Shown here: positions 9,597 through 41,681 of the stretch, in pieces | Position numbering within the stretch: the stretch's first letter is position 1 | Layout: each line of letters starts with the position of its first letter | From: Acidimicrobiales bacterium | Lineage (GTDB): Bacteria; Actinomycetota; Acidimicrobiia; Acidimicrobiales; Bin134 | Reading direction: 5' to 3' | Length of the DNA stretch: 64,000 nt | NCBI GenBank assembly: GCA_963663255.1 | Contig: OY760141.1 | Location: 1,541,295-1,605,294, forward strand | Translations under genes and position numbers: made by a program | Notes under the pieces: generated by a model | The model's database searches: none | What the model saw: only the letters and a program-made list of their open reading frames with translations | What the model was told of the DNA's origin: nothing

Positions 9597-11893
9597 GCTC
9601 GGCCGCAGGCATGAGCCCCGGCGCGCTGGGCGGGCTGAGGGTGGTGGACCACACCGATATGCGGGGGGCGCTGTGCGCCCGAGTGCTGGGCGATCTGGGG
9701 GCCGAGGTGATCCGGGTGCCGCCAGTTCCCGATCCCGACGGATTGGCCCACGCCCACCGCAACGCCAACAAGGCAGCAGGCGACCCCTCCGAGATGGAAA
9801 CCCTGATAGCCGAAGCCGACCTGCTCATCGACAACTCCGGTTTGGACCTCGACGAAGTGACCGGGCGCCATCCCCAACTCGTGGTGGTGGCTCTGACCGA
9901 CATGGGGCTCTCGGGCCCCCGCTCGGGCTGGAAGTTGGAGCCGCTGCCGGCGTTCGCCTCTTCTGGCGGGCACTTCCTGTCGGGTTTTCGGGAAAAGTCC
10001 CCGTGCTGGCACCCCGGCCATTTGGCCCACGATTGCGCCTCGGTGTTTGGCGCCGTCGGCGGGCTGGCCGCGGTGTTGGATCGGCGACGCCACGGTCAGG
10101 GCCAAATTGTGGAGATCAGCGTGCAGGAGGCGGCCCTGTCCGGGCTCAATCCCTGGTCGGTGCTGATCCCCGACTATGTGCGGCATTTTCCCGAGCTGCC
10201 CGGCGAGGGTCGTCGCAACGCCGACGGGAACTACTGGATCTTCCCGGCCCGCGACGGCTGGGTACGCACGGTGATCGGCACGCCCTACCAGTGGACCGGC
10301 TTTGTGGAAGTGCTGGGCAATCCCGACGCCCTCACCGGCCCGGAGTGGGCCGACGGGGTGTTCCGGGGCAGGAACCGTGACGTCATCCACATGGTGGCCG
10401 ATGCGATTACCTCGCAGCGGGACCGGTCCGATCTGTTCGAGCACGGCCTGGCCGCGGGAACCACCATCGGGATGATCCAATCGCCCAGCGAGTTCGCCGC
10501 CCATCCGCAGGTGGCTGGCCGGGGGTTCTTCCGCTACGACGTGGAGGGCTCTGAGGGCCTGCCATCTCCCGATGCCCCCTGGAAGCTGTCGGGCACACCG
10601 GCGGGAGTGCGCAAACCAGCCCCAAAGGCCAACGAGATCCCTTCCCTGTTCGAAGCCCGTTCCGCAGACAATCCTTGGGCACCAGGCCGTTCCAACGGCT
10701 CAGGCGACAACGGTCAGTTGTTGGCCGGTGTGCGGGTGGTGGAGTTCGGCATGGCCGCGGTGGTGCCCGAGGGCACTTGGATGCTGTCGGAATTGGGGGC
10801 CGACGTCATCAAGATCGAATCAGTGGCCCACCCCGACTCGCTGCGCTTCGCCGGTCGAGGTGACCTCGACAAGGCCTTCCCGTTCAACGCCGAGAGCCGA
10901 GGACGACGGTCGGTGGCTCTGGATATGAACACCGAGAAGGGCCGCGAGCTGGCCCTGGAGCTGTTTATGGCCGCCGATGTGGTGGCCGAGAACCTGCGGG
11001 GTGGGTCGCTGGACAAGCTTGGGCTGGGGTGGGACGACATGGCGGCCCGGAGATCCGACTTGGTGTATGTGTGCTCGCAGGGCTACGGCCGGGGTGGTCC
11101 GATGGGCAAGATGCCGGCCTATGGACCGCTCAACGCCAGCTTCGCCGGGGCCCATTGGCTGTGGAATCACGCCGATGTGCCGTTTCCGTGCGGCACCACG
11201 CTGAACCATCCCGACCACATAGCGGGCAAGCTGCTGGCGGTGGCGGTGCTGGCTGCCCTCGACCACAAGCAGCGCACCGGCGAGGGCCAGCTCATCGACA
11301 TGGCCCAGACCGAGGCCGCCGCCTACCTCATTGGCGAGGTGTACATGGGCGCGGCCGAAGCCGGCGCCGATCCCCAGGCCTGTGGCAACCGCTCAGGCGA
11401 GGTCGCTCCCCACGACGTGTACCGGGCGGGCGGCGACGACGACTGGGTGGCGCTGGCCTGCCACGATGACGAGTCGTGGCGGCGATGCTGCGAGGTGATC
11501 GGCGTGGAGAACCGCTGGCCGGCAAACGCCGACCGGCTGGCCGAAGTCGAGTTGGTGGACGCCGCCGTAGCCGCCTGGATGGCCCAGGGCCTGGCCGCCG
11601 ACCGGGCCGAGCGCCTGCAAGCCGCCAGGGTGTCGGCCATGGCGGTGATGGGCCCCTACGACCACTTGGGCGACGAGCACTTGGCCGTTCGCGGCGCGCT
11701 CGACGTGCTGGAGCACCCGGTGGTGGGCAAAGAGACCCACGTGGCCAACCCCATCCGCTTCAGCCGCACTGCCAAGCGCACCGCCGGCCCGTCCCCACTG
11801 CTCGGCGCCGACACCATCGAGGTGCTCGGCGAAGTCCTGGGCATCCCCCCCGAAGAAGTAGAAGCCCTCGCCGAAGCCGGCGTCTGCCGCTGA
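9593..11893 (+). CDS. Tandem two-module family III CoA-transferase (CaiB/BaiF type), about 766 aa
   Basis: ATG 9593 overlaps the upstream stop (ATGA). There are two full CaiB-like modules. The first starts at GLRVVDHTDMRGALCARVLGDLGAEVIRV. The second starts at GVRVVEFGMAAVVPEGTWMLSELGADVIKIES. Confidence 0.85.
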   Translation: MSSAAGMSPGALGGLRVVDHTDMRGALCARVLGDLGAEVIRVPPVPDPDGLAHAHRNANKAAGDPSEMETLIAEADLLIDNSGLDLDEVTGRHPQLVVVALTDMGLSGPRSGWKLEPLPAFASSGGHFLSGFREKSPCWHPGHLAHDCASVFGAVGGLAAVLDRRRHGQGQIVEISVQEAALSGLNPWSVLIPDYVRHFPELPGEGRRNADGNYWIFPARDGWVRTVIGTPYQWTGFVEVLGNPDALTGPEWADGVFRGRNRDVIHMVADAITSQRDRSDLFEHGLAAGTTIGMIQSPSEFAAHPQVAGRGFFRYDVEGSEGLPSPDAPWKLSGTPAGVRKPAPKANEIPSLFEARSADNPWAPGRSNGSGDNGQLLAGVRVVEFGMAAVVPEGTWMLSELGADVIKIESVAHPDSLRFAGRGDLDKAFPFNAESRGRRSVALDMNTEKGRELALELFMAADVVAENLRGGSLDKLGLGWDDMAARRSDLVYVCSQGYGRGGPMGKMPAYGPLNASFAGAHWLWNHADVPFPCGTTLNHPDHIAGKLLAVAVLAALDHKQRTGEGQLIDMAQTEAAAYLIGEVYMGAAEAGADPQACGNRSGEVAPHDVYRAGGDDDWVALACHDDESWRRCCEVIGVENRWPANADRLAEVELVDAAVAAWMAQGLAADRAERLQAARVSAMAVMGPYDHLGDEHLAVRGALDVLEHPVVGKETHVANPIRFSRTAKRTAGPSPLLGADTIEVLGEVLGIPPEEVEALAEAGVCR

Positions 11894-15908: not shown

Positions 15909-16760
15909 ATGGCAGAAGACCAAGTGACCTATGCGACTGACGGGGCGGTGGCGTCGATCACCCTCAACCGGCCGGAGGTTTTCAACGCCCTGACCGACGA
16001 GATGTTCGACCAGATCGTGGGCTTTGTCCGCCAAGCCGAGGCCGACGACGACGTGAAGTGCATCGTTTTGGCCGGAGCGGGGCGAGGGTTCACCGCGGGG
16101 TTCGATCTGTCCAGCCCCGACGACTTCTACGGCGGGGCCGAGACCAAAGGCGGGCGGTTCGCCATCGCCGGTCTGCGCCGCCGGGCGTGGGTGATGCGCG
16201 ATCTGCTGTACTCGGCCAAGCCCATCGTGGCCCGAGTACATGGGCCGTGCATCGGCGCGGGGCTCTATCTGCTGCTGGTGTGTGATTTCGCAGTGGTGTC
16301 TGATGACGCGACTTTCGGCCTGCCCGAGGAGCGCTTCGGCTCGGCGGGCACCTCGTGGCTCTATCCCATGCTGGCCTCCCAGATCGGGTTGAAGCGGACC
16401 AACGAGCTGGCGGTTACCGGGCGCAAGTTCGACGCCGACGAGGCCGAGCGGCTGGGCCTGGTCAACCGGGTGGTGCCCCGAGACGAGCTCGACGAGGCGG
16501 TGGGCCAACTCACCGGGGCGCTGGCCAGCCTGCCCCGGGACGGCATCGCCACCGGGCGCGCCGTAGCCCACTTGGCCTACGACATGCTGGGCATCGGCCA
16601 GGCATTCACCCCCCACTACGGCGTCCACCCTCTGTTCGTGATGGGTACCCGCCGCAGCCCCGACGAGTTCGACTTCCACGAGACATCGCGGGAGAAGGGC
16701 ATGAAGGGCGCGCTGGCCGAGCGCGATGAGCGCTTTGGCGGCGACTACTGGGGCTGGTAG
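15909..16760 (+). CDS. Enoyl-CoA hydratase/isomerase family protein
   Basis: MAEDQVTYATDGAVASITLNRPEVFNAL and GAGRGFTAGFDL. ATG 15909 lies within ORF 15672..16760; the upstream part is a shadow of the permease gene. Confidence 0.85.
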   Translation: MAEDQVTYATDGAVASITLNRPEVFNALTDEMFDQIVGFVRQAEADDDVKCIVLAGAGRGFTAGFDLSSPDDFYGGAETKGGRFAIAGLRRRAWVMRDLLYSAKPIVARVHGPCIGAGLYLLLVCDFAVVSDDATFGLPEERFGSAGTSWLYPMLASQIGLKRTNELAVTGRKFDADEAERLGLVNRVVPRDELDEAVGQLTGALASLPRDGIATGRAVAHLAYDMLGIGQAFTPHYGVHPLFVMGTRRSPDEFDFHETSREKGMKGALAERDERFGGDYWGW

Positions 16761-17671
16761 GCGCTCTTGGGCTGGTAGGGCACCGAGGGGTCGAAGTAGG
16801 GGCGGTCGCCGTCCACGGTGCAGCGGCGCACCTCCCGGACCTGGGGATAGTGGTCGGCCACGCCACGGTGGTTGGTTGACCGCTCGTCCCAGATGGCCAG
16901 ATCGCCCTCGGTCCACGACCACCGGCAGTGGAAGCGGGGCTGGTTGATGTGGCGCAAAAGGAAGTCGAGCAGAGCTTCGCTTTCGGCCTCGTTCATACCC
17001 ACCACGTACTGCTGGAAGTTGGTGGCGACATACAGCGCCCGTCGCCCGGTCTCCGGATGGGTGCGCACTAGAGGGTGCTCAACGCCGGGATAGGCCTCCC
17101 GCAGCAATGGCACCAAGTCCCAGCTCCCCGACTTCTCGGCCATGCTGGTGCAGAACTGGGGATAGTTGGAGTGGTGCACCTCCAGCCCGTCGATTACGGC
17201 CCGCATCGGCTCCGACAGAGCGTCGTAAGCCGAGGTGATGCTGCACCACATGGTGTCGCCGCCGTAGGGAGGAACGACGGTGGCTTGGAGCACGGCGACC
17301 TTAGGGGGCACCTCAATCCAGGTCACGTCGGTGTGCCAGTCGTCGGTGGCGGGCAGGCTGTCGGCGTCGTCGCGGATCACTGATGTAGACGGCTCGGTGG
17401 CCCCCATCATCGCCGACAGCGGGAAGATGCTGGGCTGGCCCCAGAGGGAGGCCAACTCCAGTTGGTCGTCGGCGCTCATGGGCACGTTGCGGAACAAGAT
17501 CACCTCGTGGCGGAGCAGCGCCTCGTGGACCTCGGCAAACTGCTGGTCGGTCAGGCCGTCTCGGGGGTCCACACCGGAGACCACCGCGCCCAATGATCCG
17601 CCGATCCGATCCACTTGGATGGTTTCGTATGACTCTTCAGCGTCGATGCCGGGGGTGAGGGTCATAGTCAT
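16745..17671 (-). CDS. TauD/TfdA-family Fe(II)/2-oxoglutarate dioxygenase
   Basis: WHTDVTW (HxD facial triad), GGDTMW, and a distal WDERSTNH motif. The 3' end overlaps the convergent crotonase gene by 16 bp. Confidence 0.85.
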   Translation of the reverse strand: MTMTLTPGIDAEESYETIQVDRIGGSLGAVVSGVDPRDGLTDQQFAEVHEALLRHEVILFRNVPMSADDQLELASLWGQPSIFPLSAMMGATEPSTSVIRDDADSLPATDDWHTDVTWIEVPPKVAVLQATVVPPYGGDTMWCSITSAYDALSEPMRAVIDGLEVHHSNYPQFCTSMAEKSGSWDLVPLLREAYPGVEHPLVRTHPETGRRALYVATNFQQYVVGMNEAESEALLDFLLRHINQPRFHCRWSWTEGDLAIWDERSTNHRGVADHYPQVREVRRCTVDGDRPYFDPSVPYQPKSAYQPQ

Positions 17672-17721
17672 GGGGCTATTGTGCCATTTCGTCAGCGATC
17701 AAGCCGATGAGGAGGCAACTG

Positions 17722-18585
17722 ATGCGCACTATCTTGGACGGGCTCAACTTCTCCGAGGGACCCCGGTGGCACGACGGTGCGCTTTGGTTTTCCGACATGC
17801 ACGCCCACCGGGTGGTGCGCACCGACCTGGACGGCAACGCCGAGACTATGGCGGTGGTCGACTGGGACGACCCTTCGGGATTGGGTTGGCTGCCCGACGG
17901 ACGTCTGCTGGTGGTGGCAATGTCCACCCAGAAGCTGCTGCGCCAAGAGCCCGACGGTTCGATGGTGGAGCACGCCGACCTGTCGCCGCTGGCCATCGGC
18001 GACATCAACGACATGATCGTGCGCTCCGACGGCACCGCCTATATCGGCGACATGGGTCAGAAGATCCACGCAGGGGGCGAGCGGCGCACCGCCCAGACCC
18101 TGAGGGTGTCCCCCGATGGCTCGGTGAGCGTGGGCGCCGACGGGATGGAAGCCCCTAACGGTCACATCCTCACCCCTGATGAGGCAACGCTGATCGTGGC
18201 TGAGAGTGCAGCCTTCCGGCTCACCGCGTTTGATGTGGCCCCCGATGGCACCCTGTCCAACCGAAAGGTTTACGCCGAGCTGGTCCCCGAATCGGACAGG
18301 GCACCGGTGGCCCCGCCCGACGGCATCTGTCTCGACGCCGAGGGTGCGGTGTGGGTGGCCGACCCCTTGGGCCTGCGGGTGTTCCGGGTGCTGCCCGGCG
18401 GCGAAGTGACCGACTCATACGACATGGCCCCCAAAGTCCCCGTTGCCTGCGTGCTGGGCGGCGACGACCGCCGCACCCTCTTGATCTGCGCCGCCGACGA
18501 CTGGAAGCGAGAAGTGGTAACCGCGGCCAAAACCGGTTCCATCTACGCAACCGAAGCCGTCGTCCCCGGCGTGGGAAAACCCTGA
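17722..18585 (+). CDS. SMP-30/gluconolactonase/LRE-family protein
   Basis: LNFSEGPRWHDGALWFSD and six-bladed propeller-like repeats (PDGICLD). ATG 17722 is preferred over 17707 because GGAGG lies 6 nt upstream of it. Confidence 0.8.
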   Translation: MRTILDGLNFSEGPRWHDGALWFSDMHAHRVVRTDLDGNAETMAVVDWDDPSGLGWLPDGRLLVVAMSTQKLLRQEPDGSMVEHADLSPLAIGDINDMIVRSDGTAYIGDMGQKIHAGGERRTAQTLRVSPDGSVSVGADGMEAPNGHILTPDEATLIVAESAAFRLTAFDVAPDGTLSNRKVYAELVPESDRAPVAPPDGICLDAEGAVWVADPLGLRVFRVLPGGEVTDSYDMAPKVPVACVLGGDDRRTLLICAADDWKREVVTAAKTGSIYATEAVVPGVGKP

Positions 18586-18606
18586 GCGCAGAGAGGCGGC
18601 TGTCTA

Positions 18607-20304
18607 ATGACCGCCGATCTTCGGCCGGTGATCGACAGCGAGACCGACAAATCCGCGCCCCTTCCCCATCGCAGAGTCCGGGGCCACTTTGCGGGCACTG
18701 ACTATCGGTTCACTGTTTCGCTTCCCACCAGATATCGGTACGAGCACCGGTTCTTCCAGAGCGTGTATCCGGTCGATGACGAAAACCCCGGCGATCGGTC
18801 CGTTGTTTTCGGTGCAGACTCAGGGGCCTACACCGTTCAAACCAACGCCGACGGCGGCTATCTGGTGGACGCAGCCGCCGCCACATTCGCCAAGGATGTT
18901 GCCGCCCGCCATTACGGCAGTTCCAAGCCCATTTTCGGCTACATCTATGGAGCGAGCGGAGGCTCTTACCAGACCATCGCCGCCATGGAGAACACCAGCG
19001 GGGTGTGGGCAGGAGGCGTCCCGCTGGTAATCGGCGCGATGACGTCCATACCCAACAACTTCTTCATCCGAGCGTTCGCCCGACTCATCTTGTCGGAAAA
19101 GGCGCCGCTGATAGCCGATGCCGTTGCTCCTGGCGGCAGCGGTGATCCCTACGCCGGCCTTGATCCGGTGGAAGCTGCGGTTTTGCGGGAGGTGTCGGCC
19201 TTGGGAGTTCCCCTAGTGAGTTGGAACGACTATCGCTATGTGCTCGGTCTCGACGATGAGTCAGGGCTGATGCGGTTCGCCAGCACAGTAAAGGCGATCG
19301 ACCCATCGTACGCCGATGATTTCTGGAGTGAGCCCGGCTACTTAGGGACCGAAGACTCTCCGTTGGGCGACCGCTGTCGGGCGGCTCTGATCCAGGAGGA
19401 AGCCAAGGACGACGGCGAGCCTGAGCCCCCGATTGATGCCCGGTGGCGGCTGGCCCTCTGCGCCTTTCACCGCCACCAACTCCCACCTCCGGGCGAGTTT
19501 TCCGGTTGGGATCAGTTCCGCGACCCCGATGGCCATCCCCGACATCCCCAGAGGGCAACCGAAATCGGGCCGCTGATCGGTGGTCAGGTCAGCGGGGGAG
19601 GAACCCACCACGGCCGGATCGCTGGGAAAGTCATCGTGGTGAACAGCCTCGTCGATGCCGATGCCTATCCCTGGCACGGCCACTGGTACGCCGCCCGCGT
19701 CCGGTCGGCTCTGGGCTACGACACCGACGACTGGTTCCGCCTGTGGTTTACCGACAACGCCGATCATCACACCGGCCCGATAAAAGAGGGCAAGGAACAC
19801 TGGCTGGTTTCCTACGACGGGATAGTCCAACAGGCGCTTCGGGACGTGGCGGCTTGGGCGGAAAAGGGGGTGGCCCCTGCGGCATCAACGGCATATCGGC
19901 TGGAAGACGGGCAGATCCTTTTGGCCGACACCGCAGAAGAGCGCGGCGGAATCCAACCTGTGGTGAGGCTGGAGGTCACGGCTGATCCGAGTCGATCTCA
20001 GGCTCCTCATCGAGCAGATGCCGTGTCGGCCATAGTCGAACCAGGAGAGGAGGTGACGTTTCGGGCTGTTGTCGAAGTTCCTCCCGGCGGGGGAGAGGTG
20101 GTCGCACTTGAGTGGGACCCGTTGGGCCGGGGAGAGTTCTGCGACGTCTCTCTGGTCGAGGATGGGTGGTCCACCACCCACCGATTCACCGAGGCTGGCG
20201 TGTTTTCCCCAGTGTTGCGGGCCACAACTCATCGTCAAGGCATTCCTGCCGCGTCAATTGCCCGGGTGCAGAATCTCAGCCGGGTTCGAGTCTCGGTCCA
20301 ATGA
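18607..20304 (+). CDS. Uncharacterised protein, possible alpha/beta-hydrolase (tannase/feruloyl-esterase-like) with Ig-like C-terminal domain
   Basis: 565-aa ORF with coding-like composition. Nucleophile-elbow-like GYIYGASGGSY, later DADAYPW and DNADHH. C-terminal beta-rich segment EVTFRAVVEVPPGGGEVVALEWDP. Function is tentative. Confidence 0.55.
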   Translation: MTADLRPVIDSETDKSAPLPHRRVRGHFAGTDYRFTVSLPTRYRYEHRFFQSVYPVDDENPGDRSVVFGADSGAYTVQTNADGGYLVDAAAATFAKDVAARHYGSSKPIFGYIYGASGGSYQTIAAMENTSGVWAGGVPLVIGAMTSIPNNFFIRAFARLILSEKAPLIADAVAPGGSGDPYAGLDPVEAAVLREVSALGVPLVSWNDYRYVLGLDDESGLMRFASTVKAIDPSYADDFWSEPGYLGTEDSPLGDRCRAALIQEEAKDDGEPEPPIDARWRLALCAFHRHQLPPPGEFSGWDQFRDPDGHPRHPQRATEIGPLIGGQVSGGGTHHGRIAGKVIVVNSLVDADAYPWHGHWYAARVRSALGYDTDDWFRLWFTDNADHHTGPIKEGKEHWLVSYDGIVQQALRDVAAWAEKGVAPAASTAYRLEDGQILLADTAEERGGIQPVVRLEVTADPSRSQAPHRADAVSAIVEPGEEVTFRAVVEVPPGGGEVVALEWDPLGRGEFCDVSLVEDGWSTTHRFTEAGVFSPVLRATTHRQGIPAASIARVQNLSRVRVSVQ

Positions 20305-20400: not shown

Positions 20401-21900
20401 ATGAGAAGAATCCTCGCTCTCGTCATTGTGATTGTGCTCGCACTCAGCGCCTGCACTACTTCCAAGGAAGAAGAGGCCGCACCAGAAAGTGCCCCGGCTA
20501 CCGAATCCGCCGACGATAGAGGAGCCAGTACACCGGCCCCTGAGGATGCCGACGATGGCGCACCGGCCCCTGAGGATGCCGATAGCGGTGGACAGGCCTC
20601 CGACAACGGCCAGCAAGACCAGGAAGAGGCCGAGGGCGGGGAGCAGGCCCCAGAGGGCGACGGAGCTGAGCCCGAAGTTGAGGAGCCAGCGCCCACCGGT
20701 CCGGGAACCCTGGGTCTATTCCCCGCGGTTGTCGACGAGCGGGCCCCTGGGGTTACCGACGATGCGGTGAAGATCGGAGTCATGTATCCCGACCTGACCA
20801 GCGTGAAGTCGATCATCGGCATCGACCACGGCGACTACGAAGCGGCCTACCAGGTGGCATTCGATCAGGTGAACAACGCCGGCGGTATCCATGGTCGGCG
20901 CATCGTTCCCGTGTTTGCCCCAGTTGACCCGCTTCCCGCCGATGCTGGTACGGCAGCCTGCACGCTGTTGACCGAGGACGAGGACGTGTTTCTTGCGGTG
21001 GGCAACTTCATCGGAGACGATGTGCTCTGCTTCGTCGAGACTCACGAGACGCCACTACTGGGTAGCAACATAACTACTGAAGCGTTTGCCCTGGCCAGAA
21101 CTCTTTGGTTCTCTACCGAGGCAGGCGATGGATTCGCCCTCAACGGATATCGAGCATTGGTGCAAGGCGGAAGACTCTCCGGAAGGGTCGGACTCGTCGG
21201 TTCCGTTGGCGGAGAAGAACTCTACGAGACCCAGATCAAACCCATTCTTGAGTCTGGCGGAGTCCAGGTTGTAGACGTTGCCTATCTCGACACTTCTCTT
21301 GCTGAGACCGATACCAATGCCCTGTATGCCTCGGCCGAGACCGTCGCCTTGAAGTTCGAGTCCCAGAACATAGACCAGCTCTTGTTTGCAGGAGGGTCGG
21401 AACCCGCCTTCCTCTTTGGATTGGCCCGCACTGGCTATCGACCCCAGCCGGTAATCACCAACTTCTCCAATGCCCAGGTGTACATCAGTGGAGAGGGCAA
21501 TGATCTTTCGGTTCTTGAGGGCGCGATCGCCTTCGGATCATTTGATGCAGAACCGGTTTGGCGGCAATTGGGAGATCCGACGAAGTCATGCATGGAAGAA
21601 CAGGAGAGGGTCCTTGGAATCACCTTTCTCCCGGAGGAAGAGCGGGAAGAAGACGATCCCGAATACTACGCGAGCTCCACGACTGCGTGCCGGTATACCG
21701 CCTTTGCGGCCTCGATACTGGAAGCCGCCGGCCCGGAGCTGAACCGCGGCACGTTTATCACCGCAGCCCACAATCTGGGCGAGATCATGCTTCCCGGTTT
21801 CCCTGATCCTTGGTACTTCGACAAAGACCACCCTGATGGGATTCGGCCACTGCTCTACTTCCGGTGGGACGCAGAGAGCGAGTCGCTTGTAGCCGAATAG
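20401..21900 (+). CDS. ABC transporter solute-binding lipoprotein (type I PBP, LivJ-like)
   Basis: Lipoprotein signal MRRILALVIVIVLALSAC (lipobox LSAC). A long acidic Pro/Glu/Asp linker follows, then KIGVMYPDLTS-type PBP1 fold. It sits at the head of the transporter operon. Confidence 0.8.
   Translation: MRRILALVIVIVLALSACTTSKEEEAAPESAPATESADDRGASTPAPEDADDGAPAPEDADSGGQASDNGQQDQEEAEGGEQAPEGDGAEPEVEEPAPTGPGTLGLFPAVVDERAPGVTDDAVKIGVMYPDLTSVKSIIGIDHGDYEAAYQVAFDQVNNAGGIHGRRIVPVFAPVDPLPADAGTAACTLLTEDEDVFLAVGNFIGDDVLCFVETHETPLLGSNITTEAFALARTLWFSTEAGDGFALNGYRALVQGGRLSGRVGLVGSVGGEELYETQIKPILESGGVQVVDVAYLDTSLAETDTNALYASAETVALKFESQNIDQLLFAGGSEPAFLFGLARTGYRPQPVITNFSNAQVYISGEGNDLSVLEGAIAFGSFDAEPVWRQLGDPTKSCMEEQERVLGITFLPEEEREEDDPEYYASSTTACRYTAFAASILEAAGPELNRGTFITAAHNLGEIMLPGFPDPWYFDKDHPDGIRPLLYFRWDAESESLVAE
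20531..20590 (+). repeat. Two-copy 30-bp in-frame tandem repeat inside the lipoprotein linker
   Basis: caccggcccctgaggatgccga occurs at 20531-20552 and again at 20561-20582 (22/22 identical), then diverges. It encodes TPAPEDADDGA/PAPEDADSGG. Confidence 0.9.
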
Positions 21901-21950: not shown

Positions 21951-24143
21951 ATGAGCGACGAAGCCGAGGATCGACCGAGCGAACTCGCGGAAACGATCCT
22001 CGACCTCGAATCCCAACGCCAAGAAGTTGTCGAAGAGCGTGAGGCTTTGTCGCCCGACGAAGCTCCGGGTGCCGGAGAGGGGGATTTGACTCTAAAGCAA
22101 GCCGTGGTCACCGGCAGCGCTTCGACGTTTTTCATCTTGGCCGCAATCGGCTTGTTCACCAACGTCGAGCGGGCGTCACTGAGCACTCTGTCCCCCGACA
22201 TCCGCGATTCGCTCGGCATCAGCGACGGCACGATGGTCTTCATCAGCTCCGCAGCAGGAGCGTTCCTGATTCTCGGTGCCCTTCCGATGGGGTGGTTGGC
22301 CGACCGTTTCCGCCGAGGTCGCATCATTGCCATCGCCAATCTCTTTTTCGGGGTAATGGTGGCGGTCACCGGAATGGCTGTGAACGCCGTCATGCTGTTC
22401 TTCACCCGATTGGGCGTCGGAGTTACCGAATCGAACTCCTTCACCGTGCAGACATCGCTGGTGGCCGATCAATATCCGATAAGTGCCAGGGGGCGTATTG
22501 GCAGCACACTTTCGCTGATCGGGTCGATGACCGGGGCACTCAGCCCGCTAATCGCGGGAGGGCTGGCCGTGGCGATCGGCGGACCCTCGGCGTGGCGCTG
22601 GGTATTTCTTATTCTGGCTATACCCATCGTGTTGGTGTCCATGGCGACGTTTCGAATCCCCGAGCCGCCGCGAGGGCAGTTTGAGAAGAAAGACGTACTC
22701 GGGGAGATCATCGAAGACGAGGACCCCCTCCCCATCTCGGTTGAGGTGGCCTTCGCTCGTCTGCTTCAGATTCGAACCCTTCGTTGCGTGGTCACTGCCT
22801 TTGCGGCCCTCGGATTCGGACTGTTCACGGTTCCAGTTTTGGGCAACATCTTCATGGAAGACGAGTATGGGCTCGACGCCTTCGGACGAGGTGCGGTAGG
22901 CACGGTCAGCGGTGTTGCCGTGATGATCTCAATGCCATTTGTGGGCAGGTACTACGACCGGCTGTATCGCCGGAATCCCGAATTCGCGTTCAGTCTTGTC
23001 GGGTGGCTCATTCTCCCGTCCGCGTTGCTCATTCCGGTTCAGTTCTTCATGCCCGGCCCAGTTGGGTTTGCCATCCTGGGGATACTGCCATCAGTGATGA
23101 CCATTGCCGGGTTCTCCATGGTGGGACCCCTGTTGATGGCGGTAGTCCCCTATCGATTACGGGGTATGGGCCAGGCGCTGGGGGCTCTGTATATCTTCTT
23201 TATCGGCGCCACAGGGGGGGCGTTGCTCTCGGGGTTCTTGTCCGACGCCTACGGCACCCGCACGGCGATCATCGTCATCTATGTCCCGTCGACCATTGTC
23301 GGCGGCCTATTGATGTTGCGGGGAAGAGCGTCTATCCGCGAGGACTTGGCCCTCGTCGCGGCCGACCTGCGCGAAGAGCAGGACGACCACGCCCGCCGTT
23401 CGGCCAACCCCGACCAGATTCCCGCACTCCAACTCAGCCAGGTCGACTTCTCTTATGGGCAGGTTCAGGTCTTGTTCGGTGTGAGCTTCGAGGTTGAAAA
23501 GGGCGAGGTCTTGGCGCTGTTGGGCACCAACGGCGCGGGCAAGTCGACCGCGTTGCGGGTGGTTGCCGGGCTGGGAACGCCATCTCGCGGGGTGGTGCGC
23601 CACCACGGTCGCACCATCACTTATGTCACCCCCGAGTTGCGCACCCGCTTGGGCATTCACATGCTCCCCGGCGGCAGCGGCGTGTTCAACGATCTATCTG
23701 TTCGCGAGAACCTAGAGATTGCCGCATTCAACCTGCGCAAAGACAAGGCCGCCATGGAGGCTGCCATCGAACGCGCCCTCTCTCTGTTCCCGGACCTAGC
23801 CGAACGGCCCAACGTTGCGGCGTCGTCGCTGTCGGGTGGTCAGCGCCAGTTGCTGGCCTTGGCCCAGGTGCTCACCACTGAGCCCGATGTGCTGATCATC
23901 GACGAACTCTCCCTCGGGCTGGCACCGGTCATGGTGGAGAAGCTTGTGGGGATCATCGAGGAACTCAAGTCGCAAGGCCTCACGATCATCATCGTCGAGC
24001 AGTCCCTTAATGTCGCCATGGCCATTGCCGACCGGGCGGTCTTCTTGGAGAAAGGCCACGTGCGCTTCGACGGCGACATGGCCGAGTTGGTGGAACGCGA
24101 TGATCTGGCCCGAGCAGTATTCCTGGGTACGGAGGGCGGATGA
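21951..24143 (+). CDS. Fusion protein: 12-TM MFS permease domain + LivF-type ABC ATPase domain
   Basis: N-terminal part has about 12 hydrophobic helices (6+6), the MFS motif-A-like GWLADRFRRGRIIAI, and a charged central loop. C-terminal part has Walker A GTNGAGKST, signature LSGGQRQLL and Walker B VLIIDELSLGLAP. It is a single uninterrupted ORF. Confidence 0.85.
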   Translation: MSDEAEDRPSELAETILDLESQRQEVVEEREALSPDEAPGAGEGDLTLKQAVVTGSASTFFILAAIGLFTNVERASLSTLSPDIRDSLGISDGTMVFISSAAGAFLILGALPMGWLADRFRRGRIIAIANLFFGVMVAVTGMAVNAVMLFFTRLGVGVTESNSFTVQTSLVADQYPISARGRIGSTLSLIGSMTGALSPLIAGGLAVAIGGPSAWRWVFLILAIPIVLVSMATFRIPEPPRGQFEKKDVLGEIIEDEDPLPISVEVAFARLLQIRTLRCVVTAFAALGFGLFTVPVLGNIFMEDEYGLDAFGRGAVGTVSGVAVMISMPFVGRYYDRLYRRNPEFAFSLVGWLILPSALLIPVQFFMPGPVGFAILGILPSVMTIAGFSMVGPLLMAVVPYRLRGMGQALGALYIFFIGATGGALLSGFLSDAYGTRTAIIVIYVPSTIVGGLLMLRGRASIREDLALVAADLREEQDDHARRSANPDQIPALQLSQVDFSYGQVQVLFGVSFEVEKGEVLALLGTNGAGKSTALRVVAGLGTPSRGVVRHHGRTITYVTPELRTRLGIHMLPGGSGVFNDLSVRENLEIAAFNLRKDKAAMEAAIERALSLFPDLAERPNVAASSLSGGQRQLLALAQVLTTEPDVLIIDELSLGLAPVMVEKLVGIIEELKSQGLTIIIVEQSLNVAMAIADRAVFLEKGHVRFDGDMAELVERDDLARAVFLGTEGG

Positions 24144-26999: not shown

Positions 27000-28010
27000 T
27001 CAGCCGTTGGTGTACAGGTCGTCAGGAGTCAGGGCGTTCACCATTGTTTCTCCACGGCGATAGCGACCGACGTTCTCGATGATGACGTCGATCGACCGCT
27101 GAGTGCGTTCGGGCAACTTCGGGGTCATGTGCGGGGTGATGATGACATTGGGGAGGCTCCACAGCGGTGACTCAGCCGGGAGCGGCTCCGGATCGGTGAC
27201 GTCCAGGCCAGCCCCAGCGATCTGCCCCCCGTGGAGCGCTCGGGCCAGCGCCTCATGATCGACAACTGCACCTCGGGCCAGATTCACCAGGTAAGCGGAG
27301 TCCTTCATGCGCTCGAATTGCTCCTCTCCGAACAGGTGGTGGGTGGCGTCGTTGAGGGTGATGGCGAGCATGATCACGTCGGACTCCTCTAGCAACGGGT
27401 CGAGCGAATCACCCTCTTCTGACGACAGCATCCGATCCACTGTCGGCGGGAGCGGGCCGGAGCGGCGCCGGTAGGCGATCACCCTCATCCCGAAGGCTTT
27501 CCCCAATGCCGCCATCTCGTGGCCAGTGTGTCCGAATCCGACGATCCCGAGCGTTTTGCCATGGAGGGCGAGCCGGTGTTCGTAGCCCGGAATGCCACCC
27601 CATTGGCGAGCTGCCTGCCGCTCGAAGAGGCGGCGTGCGTCAAAGGTCAAAGCGAGTGCGAGGTAGAACCCGTGCTGGGCCAGCGCGGGGGCCGACCGGC
27701 CCGCTGAACCGGTGACGATCAGACCTCGCTCGAAGATTGCGTGGCGGGCGGAGCGGTCAAGGCCGGCTTTGTCGCAGTGAACCCACCGCAGATTGGGGGC
27801 ACTCAAGTGGCGGTCGTCGATGTCGGACGTGAGCATCGCAACGTCAGCTCGGTTGAGCGCCGCGGCGATTGCGTCGTCGTCGAACGGGAACGCTTCGATG
27901 AATTCGGCAGGCGCGAAGGCCCGTCGAAGCTGACCGATCTCTTCGGGCAAGTACGGCAGTGTGGATAGGACCACGTGGATTTCGCGAGGTCCGGGGTTTG
28001 TGACGTTCAT
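27000..28010 (-). CDS. D-isomer-specific 2-hydroxyacid dehydrogenase family protein
   Basis: NAD-binding GKTLGIVGFGHTGHEMA, LARGAVVD, and the catalytic-His context ITPHMT. ATG 28010 (MNVTNPG) is preferred over 28091. Confidence 0.85.
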   Translation of the reverse strand: MNVTNPGPREIHVVLSTLPYLPEEIGQLRRAFAPAEFIEAFPFDDDAIAAALNRADVAMLTSDIDDRHLSAPNLRWVHCDKAGLDRSARHAIFERGLIVTGSAGRSAPALAQHGFYLALALTFDARRLFERQAARQWGGIPGYEHRLALHGKTLGIVGFGHTGHEMAALGKAFGMRVIAYRRRSGPLPPTVDRMLSSEEGDSLDPLLEESDVIMLAITLNDATHHLFGEEQFERMKDSAYLVNLARGAVVDHEALARALHGGQIAGAGLDVTDPEPLPAESPLWSLPNVIITPHMTPKLPERTQRSIDVIIENVGRYRRGETMVNALTPDDLYTNG

Positions 28011-28086
28011 CGCATCTCCCGGTACATGTTCGCCGTCAATGAGCCCGGACGCCATCGATGAAGAGATCGACGGCGGCTCATTACTG

Positions 28087-28098
28087 TACACATGTGTA
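28087..28098. promoter_or_regulatory. Perfect 12-bp palindrome TACACATGTGTA in a divergent promoter region (candidate operator)
   Basis: Read directly at 28087-28098. It is flanked by an AT-rich TATAAAAAAG, between the divergent starts at 28010 (-) and 28132 (+). Confidence 0.4.
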
Positions 28099-28131: not shown

Positions 28132-30264
28132 ATGACCGACGATGCAAAAGGTGACGCCGACCGACGGAGCCGGTGGTGGCACCGTCCATTTTCGGTCTTT
28201 CAGACCAACCTTCAGGAGATCGACGCGACACTCGATGTCGACGCGGCACTCGACTTCATCGAGGACTACGGGGCCGATACCTGGTTGCTCAATACCGGTG
28301 GCATAGTTTCATTCCACCCCTCTCGACTGTCTTTCCAGACGCCGAGCCCATACCTGGCCAATCGCTTGTCGGGCGACCTCGTCGGCGATGCAGTGACAGC
28401 CGCTCACGACCGGGGCTTGAAGCTGATCGCGAGGCTTGACTTCTCAAAGGTCTCAACCCGAGTCGCTCAAGAGCATCCAGAATGGCTGTACGTGTCACCG
28501 GATGGTCAGCCGCAGGTCTACAACACGCTCTACAGCGTCTGCCCTTCCGGCGCCTACTACCAGGAGCGCACATTCGACATCCTCGACGAGATCATGGATC
28601 GATACGCCATCGACGGGTTCTTTTTCAACTGGTTCAATTTCAATGAACGCGACTACAGCCGCAGATACCTGGGAGTTTGCCAGTGCACTAGCTGCCAGGA
28701 GCGGTACGCGGCGTGTAGCGACGAATCTCTGCCGGTCGGACCCGAATCCGACAACTACCGTGACTGGCTGAAGTTCTCTTTCGAGACAACCGGCAGTCTG
28801 ACCAAGCGGATCGCCGGCCACGTCTCAAGCCGTTGCCCAGATGTTGCTCTCGTGCTCCGGCGTGGAGCCACGATCGCCTACCAGGAGGCCAACAACGCGT
28901 TCGGTACCGACGTCTGGCACCACGAGACCGGCGAGGCTGTCAGCGCCCACGTCAACACCTCACCGGACGTGCCGGTTATGGTCAATTCGGTTGCGTTCGT
29001 CGATATGCCGTATCGAATGGCAGGCGAACAGCCCGAGCGCTTTGCTCAGTATCTGATCCAAGCAATCGCCCGAGGGGGCAACCCATCGACGTACATCATG
29101 GGCCCGCCGGGGCGGATTCCCTACGCAAGCCTCCCGTCCGGCCGGGAAGTGACCCGATTTCACCGCCAGCACATCGACGTGTACACCTCACTGGAGTCAG
29201 CAGCAACCATCGCCGTCGTGCGGCCCGACCGCTTCGGCATGCCCCCCCACCGCTACGCCACAACCCGCGAGGAATACCGAGGCATCTACGCCTCACTGCA
29301 ACAGACCCATCACCCCTTCGACGTCTTGGCCGTCGAGTCGCTCACTGATGCGGGCAGCCTGGGGCGCCTGAGCCGTTATTCGGTCATCGTCGTTCCAGAC
29401 CTTGGCCCCCTCGGCCTAGGCACTGCCAAGGTCCTTGATGACTATGTATATGGCGGTGGCCACCTCCTCTGCACCGGCTCGAGCGCTGTGGGAGAAGATG
29501 GCACCGTTGAGCTTGCCTCCAGCCCCGCCGACGCTGCGAAGGGAAAACCTGAGGCCGATGCGGCGACTTGGTCTCGCTACGCCACCCTTGTGGAGCAGCC
29601 CGACGCCGACGACTACTGCTATTCGCCGTCCCTTGTGCCTGTCTGGGGGGCGAACTTGTCGTTCGCCTGGAAACCTGGAACCACGATGCTCGGTTCGGTA
29701 CTTCCCCCTGCGCCGTACGGTCCTCCTGAGAAGTGCTATGGGCATGTTGTCGGCGCAGAACCGGCGATGGTCACGAAAATGCACGGCTCCGGCGGGGTGA
29801 CAGTGATTCCCTGGACGGTTGGTCGCACTTATCGAGAGTTCGGGACCACCGAAGTCCGCAATTTCCTGCTCAGTGCTGTGACCCCTCATTTTGAGAACGC
29901 GGTGACGACCACATTCCCCGAACACGTTGAGCTAATCCTCGGCACCGACGACCGAGGCCTCGTACTCCACTTTCTCAACCTGACCGGGGCCCGACACCGT
30001 ACCTTCGGTCCGCACGTGAGAATTCCCGGCGGCCAAGTGCGTCTAAACGGTGTCAAAGCATCTCGCGCCGAGGCGCTGGTGGCGGCGAGCCCTATCGCGG
30101 TCCGCTACGACGGCTCCGACACTGTCCTCGATCTCCCGCCACTCGAGCGCTTCGAGGTTCTCCGGGTTGCGACGCTAAATGAAACTAATGTCATGTCTTC
30201 AAGGTCACACCTTGCTTCGGCTGTCGCCGAGTCGATCGGCTCTCCAACCACCGAAAGGACCTAG
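28132..30264 (+). CDS. Putative glycoside-hydrolase-like protein (GHL6/GH42-like TIM barrel plus trimerisation-like domain)
   Basis: 710 aa with SD GAGGAG upstream. N-terminal FQTNLQEID...DTWLLNTGG...HDRGLKLIARLDFSK...IDGFFFNW resembles GHL6-type barrels. The later RYSVIVVPDLGPLG...GGGHLLCTG resembles the GH42 class-I-amidotransferase-like domain. Assignment is tentative. Confidence 0.55.
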   Translation: MTDDAKGDADRRSRWWHRPFSVFQTNLQEIDATLDVDAALDFIEDYGADTWLLNTGGIVSFHPSRLSFQTPSPYLANRLSGDLVGDAVTAAHDRGLKLIARLDFSKVSTRVAQEHPEWLYVSPDGQPQVYNTLYSVCPSGAYYQERTFDILDEIMDRYAIDGFFFNWFNFNERDYSRRYLGVCQCTSCQERYAACSDESLPVGPESDNYRDWLKFSFETTGSLTKRIAGHVSSRCPDVALVLRRGATIAYQEANNAFGTDVWHHETGEAVSAHVNTSPDVPVMVNSVAFVDMPYRMAGEQPERFAQYLIQAIARGGNPSTYIMGPPGRIPYASLPSGREVTRFHRQHIDVYTSLESAATIAVVRPDRFGMPPHRYATTREEYRGIYASLQQTHHPFDVLAVESLTDAGSLGRLSRYSVIVVPDLGPLGLGTAKVLDDYVYGGGHLLCTGSSAVGEDGTVELASSPADAAKGKPEADAATWSRYATLVEQPDADDYCYSPSLVPVWGANLSFAWKPGTTMLGSVLPPAPYGPPEKCYGHVVGAEPAMVTKMHGSGGVTVIPWTVGRTYREFGTTEVRNFLLSAVTPHFENAVTTTFPEHVELILGTDDRGLVLHFLNLTGARHRTFGPHVRIPGGQVRLNGVKASRAEALVAASPIAVRYDGSDTVLDLPPLERFEVLRVATLNETNVMSSRSHLASAVAESIGSPTTERT

Positions 30265-32434: not shown

Positions 32435-33352
32435 ATGGCAGAACGGGCCATCGACGGCAAGGTTGCGTTGGTTACCGGCGCCAGCAAGGGCGGCACGGGC
32501 ACGGCGATCGCGATTCGCCTAGCTGCCGAAGGTGCACGAGTGGCAATAACCGCCCGAGATGAACAGGGCTTGGCCGCCACCAAGGACCGCATCGAATCTT
32601 CTGGCGGGGAGTGCCTTGTGCTTCCCTCGGACCTCAGCGATCCGACTGGGGCTCGTACCGAGTTGGTGCCCAAGACGGAGGAGGCGTTCGGCCCCATCGA
32701 CATCCTCGTCAACAACGCCGCCTTCGGCGGCTACCACCCGTTCGAGGAGGTCACGCCCAAGCAGCTCGAGCTGAGTCTGCAAGTCAACCTGTGGGCACCT
32801 TGGGAGCTTATGAAGGCCGTCATCGGCGGGATGCGCGAGCGGGGGAACGGAGCGATCTTGAACCTCACCACCTTCTCCGCTGAGCTGCCTCCCGGACCCC
32901 CGTTCCCGTCGAGCAAGCCGTCGAAAGCCGGCTTCGTCTACGGGGCACCCAAGGCGGCACTGAACAAGCTGACCGTGTCAGCGGCCAGCGAGTGCGAGGG
33001 GCAGGGGGTGGCGGTGAACGCCCTGACCCCCCAGGCGGCCATCGCTACACCGGCGCTGGTTGAAGGCGGCTGGATCGACGAGGAGATGTTCGAGCCGCTG
33101 GAGACCATGGCTGAGGCCGCCTTGGCTCTGGTCACAGGCGATCCGGATGTGCTCACCGGACGCATCGCCTTCAGCCTGCAACTATTGGTGGAGCTGGACC
33201 GGCCGGTGCGCGATCTCATGGGCGAGTCACTGGTCGAGGGCTGGCAGCCGGGCGACATTCCCGCGGCCATCGCCCGCCAAGAGGCCAACCTCGCCCGACG
33301 GGGCTGGCCCGATGCCTACACCTTCGGCCGGATCCACAGCCCGCGTCCATGA
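32435..33352 (+). CDS. SDR-family oxidoreductase
   Basis: VALVTGASKGGTGTAIA, NNAA, YGAPKAAL (YxxxK). Confidence 0.85.
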   Translation: MAERAIDGKVALVTGASKGGTGTAIAIRLAAEGARVAITARDEQGLAATKDRIESSGGECLVLPSDLSDPTGARTELVPKTEEAFGPIDILVNNAAFGGYHPFEEVTPKQLELSLQVNLWAPWELMKAVIGGMRERGNGAILNLTTFSAELPPGPPFPSSKPSKAGFVYGAPKAALNKLTVSAASECEGQGVAVNALTPQAAIATPALVEGGWIDEEMFEPLETMAEAALALVTGDPDVLTGRIAFSLQLLVELDRPVRDLMGESLVEGWQPGDIPAAIARQEANLARRGWPDAYTFGRIHSPRP

Positions 33353-34548
33353 GCGACGAGCTGTTCTTGAGGATCGCTACCGATCCCAGCGTCATCGCCG
33401 ACCCCTATCCGCTGCTGGCGGAGTTGCGGGAAGCTTCGCCGGTGCACAAGTTGAGCTTCGCCGACTACTGGGTCCTCACTCGCTATGAGGATTGCCGGGC
33501 AGCGCTGAGGGATCCCAGAATGGGGAATCCCGAGCCGGGCGACGCGGTGCCGACGCTGGTGGCCAACCGGGAGCGATATCCCGACGAAGAGCGATCCCTG
33601 CTGTTCTTGAATCCGCCCGACCACACCCGCCTGCGGTCGCTGGTAAGCAGAGCCTTTACCCCCCGTCGAGTGGAAGGTCTGCGGGAGACGGTGGAAGACA
33701 TGACTGTCGAACTGCTAGATCCGCTGGCCGCCGCCGGAGGGGGAGACTTGATCGATGAGCTGGCCTTCCCGCTGCCGGCCAACGTGATCAGTGAGCTGGT
33801 GGGAGTTCCCCGAGCTGATCGCGACTGGCTGCGACCCCTGGTGTCGGATTTGGCCGGCACCCTCGAGCCGAACCGCAGCGTGGAGGATCTGGAGCAGGCC
33901 GAGGCGTCGGGGGCGCAGGTGGCGGCGTATTTCGACGACTTGATCAACCGCCGGCGCACCAATCCCAGCGACGACCTGTTGTCGGGTCTGATTGCCGCCA
34001 GCGACGGTGAGGACCGGCTCACGCAAGGCGAGATCGGGCGGACGGTGTCATTGATCTACGCAGCCGGGTTTGAGACAACTACCAACCTCATCGGCAACAT
34101 GGTCCACTCTCTTATTGGCCACCCCGACCAGCTAGCTCAGCTGCGGGCTGACCGGTCGCTGGTGCCCGGCGCGGTGGACGAGGTGCTGCGCTATCAGCCT
34201 CCCGTACAGGTGGACGCCCGGTACACCTTCGAAGAGGTGGAAGTCGGTGGGCACGCCATCGCCCAGGGCAGCATGGTGTTGACACTGCTGGCCGCGGCCA
34301 ATCGCGACCCCGCGGTGATCGACGATCCCGACCGGTTCGACATCACCCGCCAAGACACGCCGCTGCTTTCGTTCGGCTCGGGTATCCACTACTGCCTGGG
34401 GGCATCGCTGGCCCGCCTAGAGGGCCAAGTGGTGCTGGCTGGCCTGCTTGACCGTTTCCAAACCTGGACTCCTTTGGAGGACGACCCCCCATGGAAGGAC
34501 CGGCTCACCTTGCGCGGGTTGGCCCGCTTACCGGTGGCTTTGTCCTAG
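33349..34548 (+). CDS. Cytochrome P450
   Basis: ATGA overlap with the upstream SDR. EVLRY (ExxR) and heme loop FGSGIHYCLGASLAR. Confidence 0.9.
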   Translation: MSDELFLRIATDPSVIADPYPLLAELREASPVHKLSFADYWVLTRYEDCRAALRDPRMGNPEPGDAVPTLVANRERYPDEERSLLFLNPPDHTRLRSLVSRAFTPRRVEGLRETVEDMTVELLDPLAAAGGGDLIDELAFPLPANVISELVGVPRADRDWLRPLVSDLAGTLEPNRSVEDLEQAEASGAQVAAYFDDLINRRRTNPSDDLLSGLIAASDGEDRLTQGEIGRTVSLIYAAGFETTTNLIGNMVHSLIGHPDQLAQLRADRSLVPGAVDEVLRYQPPVQVDARYTFEEVEVGGHAIAQGSMVLTLLAAANRDPAVIDDPDRFDITRQDTPLLSFGSGIHYCLGASLARLEGQVVLAGLLDRFQTWTPLEDDPPWKDRLTLRGLARLPVALS

Positions 34549-34555
34549 CCGAAGG

Positions 34556-35737: not shown

Positions 35738-35755
35738 TGTGATAGAGACTGCCTT

Positions 35756-39226: not shown

Positions 39227-39247
39227 GACTCAAGGAGCGGCCAGCCA

Positions 39248-41680: not shown

Positions 41681-41681
41681 T

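Follow-up and report, generated by a model that had tools for sequence, protein, structure and literature searches.

An MFS carrier domain fused to the LivF-type ATPase of a Liv-like ABC importer, an architecture widespread in Acidimicrobiia

Introduction

No transporter superfamilies are larger than the ATP-binding cassette (ABC) transporters and the major facilitator superfamily (MFS). In teaching, their mechanisms are kept apart, the former being powered by ATP and the latter by gradients. The DNA analyzed in this work, a stretch of 64,000 nucleotides from an Acidimicrobiales bacterium (contig OY760141.1; the whole stretch is referred to as the window), contains a gene that joins the two, as it encodes a 12-transmembrane-helix (12-TM) MFS domain followed in the same chain by an ABC ATPase of the LivF type, and it lies among the genes of a Liv-like importer. 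This MFS-LivF gene raises the questions of whether such a fusion is genuine, how far it extends among bacteria and what a carrier fold may be doing on one of the two ATPases of an importer. The first-pass annotation of the window, made from the sequence alone, had described the architecture, had left three options for its function (a hybrid primary/secondary transporter, a transceptor-type sensor or a coupled import/export device) and knew of no functional description of it. Neither a published description nor a function was found by us in the full-text literature, with TCDB and InterPro lying outside that search. A bare catalogue entry for the architecture may exist; automated annotation already recognises both domains.

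Results

A single polypeptide carries an MFS domain and a LivF-type ATPase domain

The gene is an open reading frame (ORF) of 730 codons plus stop that runs uninterrupted, as had been claimed, and every motif quoted in the first-pass annotation (MFS motif A, the central loop, Walker A, the ABC signature and Walker B) is present at its place (Table 1). In Pfam searches with the 730-aa product, the N-terminal half passed MFS_1 (residues 67-416, E 1.3e-36, 126.7 bits for a cut-off of 33.4) and has the MFS fold, whereas the C-terminal half passed ABC_tran (residues 510-652, E 6.4e-27). The 6+6 layout of the 12 TM helices was borne out alike by hydropathy and by two AlphaFold2 models, one of the full-length protein (predicted local distance difference test, pLDDT, 84; predicted template-modelling score, pTM, 0.76) and one of the MFS part only (pLDDT 88.5, pTM 0.84). 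The predicted loops hold 15 lysine and arginine residues on the cytoplasmic side versus 2 on the external side, and the protein is therefore predicted to be N-in/C-in, with its nucleotide-binding domain in the cytoplasm.

Besides motif A, the first half of the MFS domain contains motif B (R153..G157), the element D173-x-Y-P, the SP/GP of TM5 and W215-R216; the second half contains its own motif A between TM8 and TM9 (G332RYYDRLYRR, including G332..D336-R337) and R404. The central loop spans aa 235-258. The linker that leads into the ATPase domain is modeled as a helix with pLDDT 79-85 in the full-length protein, its residue D465 is invariant in the family alignment, and no start codon or Shine-Dalgarno sequence was seen inside the junction DNA. 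The acidic N-terminal extension carries a motif (LAxxILxLExxR...LPGVG) that is kept in the clade of the window protein and in several other clades, but not in the free MFS relatives described below. The best NCBIfam models for the ATPase domain were LivF and UrtE, at 178 and 160 bits, both under their equivalog cut-offs (285.8 and 441), and the domain matched PDB 1ji0 both in sequence (E 2.5e-45) and in structure (Foldseek TM-score 0.91). No solved structure covering both halves was found, as Foldseek with the full-length model aligned the ATPase domain only (TMq at most 0.31). A PDB sequence search with both transporter proteins, that is, MFS-LivF and the LivH-LivM-LivG protein encoded next to it, likewise returned ATPase-domain matches only, and the LivH/M membrane part had no match even at E<=1.

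The fusion is genuine and belongs to a large, old family

A homology search with the 730-aa protein returned 1442 matches at E<=1e-10. Nearly all of the best 120 of them, which stem from ENA, NCBI, JGI and Logan assemblies, are about 730 aa long and carry both domains, and a few are partial (e.g. P0010, 530 aa, MFS only). More than 100 full-length orthologues from independent assemblies share 58-100% identity with the window protein, and two complete chromosomes assembled from metagenomes contain the same intact ORF at 87% identity. With these two orthologues, the ratio of non-synonymous to synonymous substitution rates (dN/dS) amounted to 0.09 over the MFS domain and 0.07 over the ATPase domain, with 0.08-0.10 in the linker between them. 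Orthologues are thus fused and not split into two genes, the latter being what the first-pass annotation had named as grounds for abandoning its claim.

The fusion is also retained in diverged relatives, down to 25-30% identity in the MFS part. When the MFS part by itself was searched exhaustively with HMMER, 194 clusters, formed at the 50% identity level, passed E<=1e-30, and full-length representatives of 698-752 aa have their Walker A motif about 500-540 residues in, even where MFS identity to the window is 28-30%. Further searches started from P0245 and P0240, both of them distant family members; they found hundreds more and revealed three architectures: MFS-LivF of about 700-750 aa, MFS-LivF-LivG in a single chain of 960-1080 aa (e.g. 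P0511), and stand-alone MFS of 440-500 aa. Source names point to Acidimicrobiia/Acidimicrobiales, Ilumatobacteraceae, Iamia, Aquihabitans and Actinomycetota, with a few metagenome-assembled genomes (MAGs) labeled Mycobacteriales, Frankiales or Vicinamibacterales, and one cultured isolate with the fused gene, Actinospongicola halichondriae, is among them. With the single protein as query, a scan of a genome collection reached, besides ordinary LivF genes, no more than three close Acidimicrobiales MAGs, and it is thus not informative on taxonomic breadth. The MFS-LivF fusion is a large, old family centred on Acidimicrobiia, whose members existing pipelines label as "MFS transporter", "ATP-binding protein" or "branched-chain amino acid ATPase/MFS permease".

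The possibility that assembly or gene calling had artificially joined an MFS gene to livF was rejected, and we give it practically no weight: intact fused ORFs occur by the hundreds, in independent sources and in a cultured isolate, and dN/dS stays at about 0.09 across the junction. What could be held in its favor is that some metagenomic homologues have frameshifted tails, which themselves derive from long-read errors.

Two observations concern the quality of individual assemblies. Frameshifted tails rich in Arg, Ser and Cys are seen in many of the metagenomic homologues. In the long-read MAG locus L055, the LivH part of the LivH-LivM-LivG gene looks disrupted at 10199-10635, where gene calling sets the start late (leaving 814 aa) and places a short antisense ORF in the gap; this is likely an assembly frameshift rather than biology.

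The ABC importer is complete without the MFS domain

Pfam searches and translations confirmed that the fusion gene is flanked by a gene for a lipoprotein binding protein on one side and by a gene fusing LivH, LivM and LivG (LivHMG) on the other, and that the start of the latter overlaps the stop of MFS-LivF through ATGA. The binding protein scored 39.2 bits with Peripla_BP_6 (Pfam cut-off 31.7) and matched PDB 4n03 (E 7e-8); its lipobox and this domain are separated by a tether of low complexity, about 80 residues long, in which Asp, Glu, Ala and Pro abound (aa ~21-100, window 20461-20700). LivHMG matches BPD_transp_2 in two stretches (E 1e-45) and UrtB over residues 10-297, and further along ABC_tran (696-854) and BCA_ABC_TP_C (903-925, 34.8 bits for a cut-off of 25.5), its best NCBIfam model being LivG. 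A promoter and terminator scan of the operon gave nothing above shuffled expectation. These results identify the product of the fusion gene as the LivF-type ATPase subunit of a binding-protein-dependent importer of the HAAT type (Liv/Urt-like), and show that the ABC core (LivH, LivM, LivG, LivF and the lipoprotein binding protein) is complete without the MFS domain. The latter is therefore a third, extra membrane module, present in one copy per transporter, and the domain searches uphold the proposal that an MFS-type membrane domain is tethered to the LivF-type ATPase of a Liv-like importer.

The same holds beyond the window. Ten fused loci were inspected (the window, L055, L056, L059, L061, L062, L063, L064 and L065, plus L002/L003 by tblastn), and in all ten (i) LivH/M, LivG and a binding protein are encoded beside the fusion gene, and (ii) the MFS domain is joined to LivF, never to another subunit and never merely adjacent. 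One of the ten stems from the cultured A. halichondriae (CP171622.1, about 739.8-756.7 kb). The layouts of the fusions, four in all, vary from binding protein, MFS-LivF and LivHMG, through binding protein, MFS-LivF, LivHM and separate LivG, to LivHM, the triple fusion MFS-LivF-LivG and a binding-protein-like gene. In the loci with the triple fusion, the neighbors lacking a Pfam match are homologous to the Peripla_BP_6 protein of another locus. These homologues escape Pfam and seemingly have an N-terminal TM anchor where the window protein has its tether.

Identity to the window was compared module by module across the loci. The MFS domain diverges in step with LivH/LivM (86 vs 81-83%, 57-58 vs 55-64% and 25-27 vs 34-37%, respectively), the ATPase domains range from 45 to 92%, and the binding protein diverges fastest.

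The MFS domain keeps the marks of a working carrier

Conservation was analyzed in alignments of 71-90 family members, free MFS relatives included. The conserved positions are the classical ones of the superfamily: motif A in both halves, the Arg and Gly of motif B (TM4), the D-x-Y-P...R loop, GP in TM5 and W-R after TM5. Residues R119, R122 and G332 are invariant or nearly so (71 sequences), and the free relatives keep the same conserved positions as the fused ones. In addition, the central loop is strongly conserved within the clade of the window protein. With the MFS-only model, Foldseek gave TM-scores of 0.71-0.80 to DgoT and SPNS2, and of 0.7-0.8 also to FLVCR1, MdfA and NorA, and DgoT was the best PDB sequence match of the MFS part as well.

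Stand-alone MFS relatives share 53-60% identity with the MFS domain of the fused homologue P0245 and about 25% with that of the window. One of them, P0377 (L057 6212-9909; 55% and about 25%, respectively), lies outside any Liv operon, between sulfite/nitrite reductase and rhodanese genes, a context that hints at a sulfur compound as the substrate of this free branch; another, P0360, lies in an unrelated context, also with no Liv operon. In distance trees free and fused MFS domains interleave (fused P0295 shares 54% with free P0315, and free P0257 shares 52% with fused P0138). A comparison of 29 fused with 42 free MFS sequences of this clade revealed no residue fixed differently at thresholds of 85-90%, and weak trends at 75%; consequently, no fusion-specific interface is pinpointed. 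Motif conservation, the low dN/dS of about 0.09, the MFS fold, the existence of free relatives and the divergence in step with LivH/LivM argue for a transport-competent module that would specialize together with the substrate-contacting parts of the importer, rather than a decayed anchor.

The fused ATPase has lost the Q-loop residue

The Q-loop couples the nucleotide state to the coupling helix of the membrane domain. At the position of the Q-loop Gln/Glu, the fused LivF-type domains have Gly (310 of 324; G574 in the window protein) or Ser (12 of 324), and never Gln or Glu, whereas ordinary LivF homologues read VPEDRQ and the LivG partners FQ. In the dimer, the site formed by the LivF Walker A combines a Q-loop Gly, a Gln at the H-loop position (VEQS) and a Walker B Glu, which is present, and it faces the LivG signature LSTG(S/T)RR. 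In the LivG-type ATPase of the window, the motifs of Walker A, of the Q-loop (FQ), of Walker B and of the H-loop (EHD) are all canonical, and the signature reads LSTGTRR. The opposite site, made of these LivG motifs including the H-loop His and of the LivF LSGGQ, is fully canonical. Ordinary Liv systems, such as E. coli LivF and LivG, likewise have an H-loop Gln and a deviating LivG signature, and therefore only the loss of the Q-loop residue is specific to the fused family.

Given the loss of the Q-loop Gln/Glu, the H-loop Gln and the LSTGxRR signature of LivG, the ATP site on the LivF Walker A would probably be slow or regulatory, with most of the hydrolysis taking place at the LivG Walker A site. 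Since the Q-loop normally links nucleotide state and coupling helix, we infer from the sequence that the MFS-tethered LivF may have shifted to a slower, regulatory role.

Gene context and other features of the window

Genes of carbohydrate metabolism surround the fused systems: rhamnosidases, a fusion of the rhamnulose-phosphate aldolase/dehydrogenase type, FGGY kinase, GH1, GH3, GH43 and fucosidase. The carbohydrate-type neighbor in the window itself is a GHL6/GH42-like protein of 710 aa (28132-30264, +), which stands, together with a 2-hydroxyacid dehydrogenase gene (27000-28091, -), between LivHMG and a gene for a PhyH-family Fe(II)/2-oxoglutarate dioxygenase. A PhyH gene directly follows LivHMG in L002 and L003 (94-96% identity) and in L055 (56%), and PhyH genes are also found in L056 and, twice, in L061; the dioxygenase may act on the imported compound. 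These neighbors suggest a sugar- or glycoside-derived substrate rather than branched-chain amino acids; the annotated role as a branched-chain amino-acid importer is unproven, the binding protein being weakly LivJ-like and the context carbohydrate-related.

Other genes of the window are recorded here for completeness. Just upstream of the operon (16745-20304) there are a TauD-family dioxygenase gene (-), a lactonase gene of the SMP-30/gluconolactonase type (17707-18585) and a gene for a 565-aa protein with a weak PKD match (18607-20304). At 36782-43211 (+), two tandem genes for DAO-FAO_M-GCV_T proteins of about 810 aa (sarcosine/dimethylglycine dehydrogenase-like) are followed by an MTTB-family methyltransferase gene, in what looks like a cluster for the demethylation of methylated amines or betaines. 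Two cytochrome P450 genes lie near each other at 33349-36529, one of 399 aa (+) and the other an unusually long ORF of 656 aa (-), in which the C-terminal ~100 residues only match the P450 model. Finally, an 812-aa protein encoded at 9455-11893 (+) has two CoA_transf_3 stretches, as a doubled family III CoA-transferase.

Table 1. Coordinates of the MFS-LivF gene, its parts and associated genes. Nucleotide positions refer to the window unless another locus is named.
Feature	Residues (aa)	Position (nt)	Strand	Remarks
Solute-binding lipoprotein, 499 aa		20401..21900	+	Lipobox LSAC, Peripla_BP_6 (LivJ-type)
MFS-LivF fusion gene		21951..24143	+	Single uninterrupted ORF, 730 aa plus stop
Acidic cytoplasmic N-terminal extension	1-45	21951..22085	+	Predicted helix aa 9-31, pLDDT 53-65
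12-TM MFS domain	46-460	22086..23330	+	Pfam MFS_1, AlphaFold2, Foldseek
MFS motif A, GWLADRFRRGR	114-124	22290-22322	+	
Linker	461-492	23331..23426	+	One continuous helix (462-485) from TM12 to first ATPase strand
LivF/UrtE-type ABC ATPase domain	493-730	23427..24140	+	
Walker A, GTNGAGKST	525-533	23523-23549	+	
Atypical Q-loop, LPGG	572-575	23664-23675	+	
ABC signature, LSGGQ	627-631	23829-23843	+	
Walker B, VLIIDE	647-652	23889-23906	+	With catalytic Glu
VEQS at H-loop position		23994-24005	+	
LivH-LivM-LivG fusion, 939 aa		24140..26959	+	Two BPD_transp_2, ABC_tran, BCA_ABC_TP_C
PhyH-family Fe(II)/2-oxoglutarate dioxygenase, 418 aa		30267..31523	+	Pfam PhyH
PhyH gene in L002		13191-14444		
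PhyH gene in L055		13084-14340		
PhyH gene in L056		4102-5421		
PhyH gene in L061, first		552-1331		
PhyH gene in L061, second		10556-11404		

Discussion

In this work, we analyzed a gene of an Acidimicrobiales bacterium in which a complete MFS domain precedes the LivF-type ATPase of an ABC importer. We consider as the most likely reading, at a probability of roughly 0.45, that the MFS domain functions as a carrier within the pathway of the importer, and that its cycle is coordinated with that of the ATPase dimer. The MFS module would act as a secondary carrier for the pathway served by the ABC importer: either the imported compound, or one related to it, would have another way across the membrane, or a by-product would be let out. 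The alternating access of the module and the closing and opening of the LivF-LivG dimer would influence each other through the rigid connection formed by TM12, the linker and the ATPase domain, so that, for instance, the carrier might be kept closed while the pump accumulates substrate, or the state of the carrier might gate the ATPase. In favor of coupling speak the confidently predicted linker helix, the pTM of the whole chain, the invariant D465 and the family-specific change in the Q-loop. A tighter version, in which the ATPase dimer and the MFS domain would form one machine sharing one motor, either because dimer closure gates or powers the rocker-switch via TM12 and the linker or because the state of the MFS domain licenses hydrolysis, seems to us rather improbable.

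Several points weigh against a carrier coordinated with the dimer. Transport by the MFS domain, and its contact with LivH/M or with the ATPase dimer, are postulated; the conserved MFS motifs would also fit a conformationally active sensor; the free relatives may be recent offshoots that became autonomous again; and either direction of MFS transport is conceivable. Besides, canonical LivF and LivG already deviate in the H-loop and in the signature, which leaves the Q-loop as the only family-specific change, and the sugar context is circumstantial and differs between loci.

An MFS domain that no longer transports might instead be an accessory domain, comparable to the TMD0 of other ABC proteins, or a transceptor, which would anchor LivF and hold it in position, recruit or stabilize LivH/M or the tethered binding protein, or sense a ligand and thereby regulate the ATPase. 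An ABC core that is complete on its own, the obligatory nature of the fusion in the family, a central loop and an N-terminal cytoplasmic helix unusually conserved in the clade of the window, as would be expected of a protein-protein interface, and a Q-loop loss that suggests a regulatory role for LivF are all consistent with this possibility. However, the charge-relay residues of motifs A and B are kept in both halves at 25% overall identity, and an anchor needs none of them; homologues with 53-60% identity to the MFS domain of P0245 live free outside Liv operons, with no residue separating them from the fused ones; and the MFS domain diverges together with the modules that contact the substrate. 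We therefore hold a non-transporting domain to be possible, on the unlikely side. The fusion could also merely secure co-expression, co-localization and a 1:1 stoichiometry for two independent transporters of one pathway, with no mechanical coupling between them. Bacteria often hold a high-affinity ABC system and a low-affinity secondary system for one substrate, and layouts within the family shuffle freely (LivHM, LivHMG, LivF-LivG), both of which would fit such an arrangement; but it would not explain that the MFS domain is always on LivF in the ten loci, on no other subunit and never just adjacent, that purifying selection acts on a linker both conserved and helical, or that the ATPase has a Q-loop change of its own, and we regard it as unlikely.

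A primary/secondary hybrid, in which the rocker-switch of the MFS domain would run directly on the ATP cycle of LivF-LivG, finds an analogy in ArsB, a secondary carrier that becomes a pump when the ArsA ATPase binds. The covalent and rigid helical link between TM12 and the ATPase domain, the pTM of 0.76 for the whole chain and the MFS-LivF-LivG variant, which has both ATPases on the MFS chain, could be cited for it. Notwithstanding, an ATP-powered path through the MFS domain is disfavored because LivH and LivM, present in 10/10 loci, would fill both coupling grooves of the dimer, because the MFS domain is tethered at its TM12 end only, and because the fused ATPase lacks the Q-loop residue that links nucleotide state to a membrane domain; the free MFS relatives, moreover, have no ATPase at all. 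Such a hybrid appears improbable to us. As regards the three options left by the first-pass annotation, a transport-competent MFS domain is thus favored over a degenerate anchor, and the constant presence of LivH/LivM argues against a dimer that directly powers the MFS domain, whereas hybrid, transceptor and import/export device are not separated by the present results.

Whichever reading holds, a bacterial lineage has long kept an ABC and an MFS module welded; the joint is the same throughout, the Q-loop has changed to match, and the family includes abundant Acidimicrobiia of soil, freshwater and marine environments. Any communication between the halves would make the family a natural case of cross-talk between primary and secondary transporters and a new way to regulate uptake; without it, the family would still be an uncharacterised subfamily of importers, apparently tied to the use of carbohydrates or glycosides. 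In either case, the labels "MFS transporter" and "branched-chain amino acid ATPase" are both misleading, and the cultured A. halichondriae makes experiments possible.

Compared with known systems, the closest relatives on the ABC side are the HAAT importers (TC 3.A.1.4; LivJ/K-HMGF, UrtABCDE, BraDEFG-C), which carry hydrophobic amino acids, urea or related small solutes. The window system shares with them the two BPD_transp_2 domains, a LivG with a BCA_ABC_TP_C tail, a LivF/UrtE-like ATPase with VEQS and SLGLAP motifs, a cluster-B binding protein of the Peripla_BP_6 family and the operon organization. It differs in that its LivF carries a 12-TM MFS domain instead of being soluble and stand-alone, in the replacement of the Q-loop Glu/Gln by Gly, in an ATPase domain that scores under the LivF/UrtE equivalog cut-offs, in the fusion of LivH, LivM and LivG and in its sugar/glycoside-type context. 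With stand-alone MFS carriers, of which close free relatives exist in the same bacteria, it has in common the 6+6 TM fold, motifs A and B and the N-in/C-in topology; the closest solved MFS structures are DgoT, of the anion:cation symporter family, by sequence, and Spinster/SPNS2, FLVCR and MdfA by fold. In contrast to them, the MFS domain of the window is joined to an ABC ATPase within an ABC importer operon, has, as in many fused clades, an extra N-terminal cytoplasmic helix, and has a central loop conserved in its clade.

More distant parallels exist for the association itself. ArsAB is a physical association of a carrier of the secondary type with an ATPase, which sets a precedent for a carrier working alone or with an ATPase; however, ArsB lies outside the MFS and ArsA outside the ABC ATPases, the two are not fused, and neither a binding protein nor a second set of membrane domains takes part. 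The TMD0 of ABCC, SUR and TAP proteins is likewise an extra membrane domain on a complete ABC core, but it is a 5-TM bundle without a carrier fold. The sensor kinase-MFS family of TCDB (TC 2.A.1.34), listed in PMC3924187 and the sole related item found, shares the fusion of an MFS domain to a soluble signaling or enzymatic domain, and none of the known MFS fusions that we found listed has an ABC ATPase domain. Altogether, MFS-LivF is a real, widespread and uncharacterised architecture that combines known kinds of transporter.

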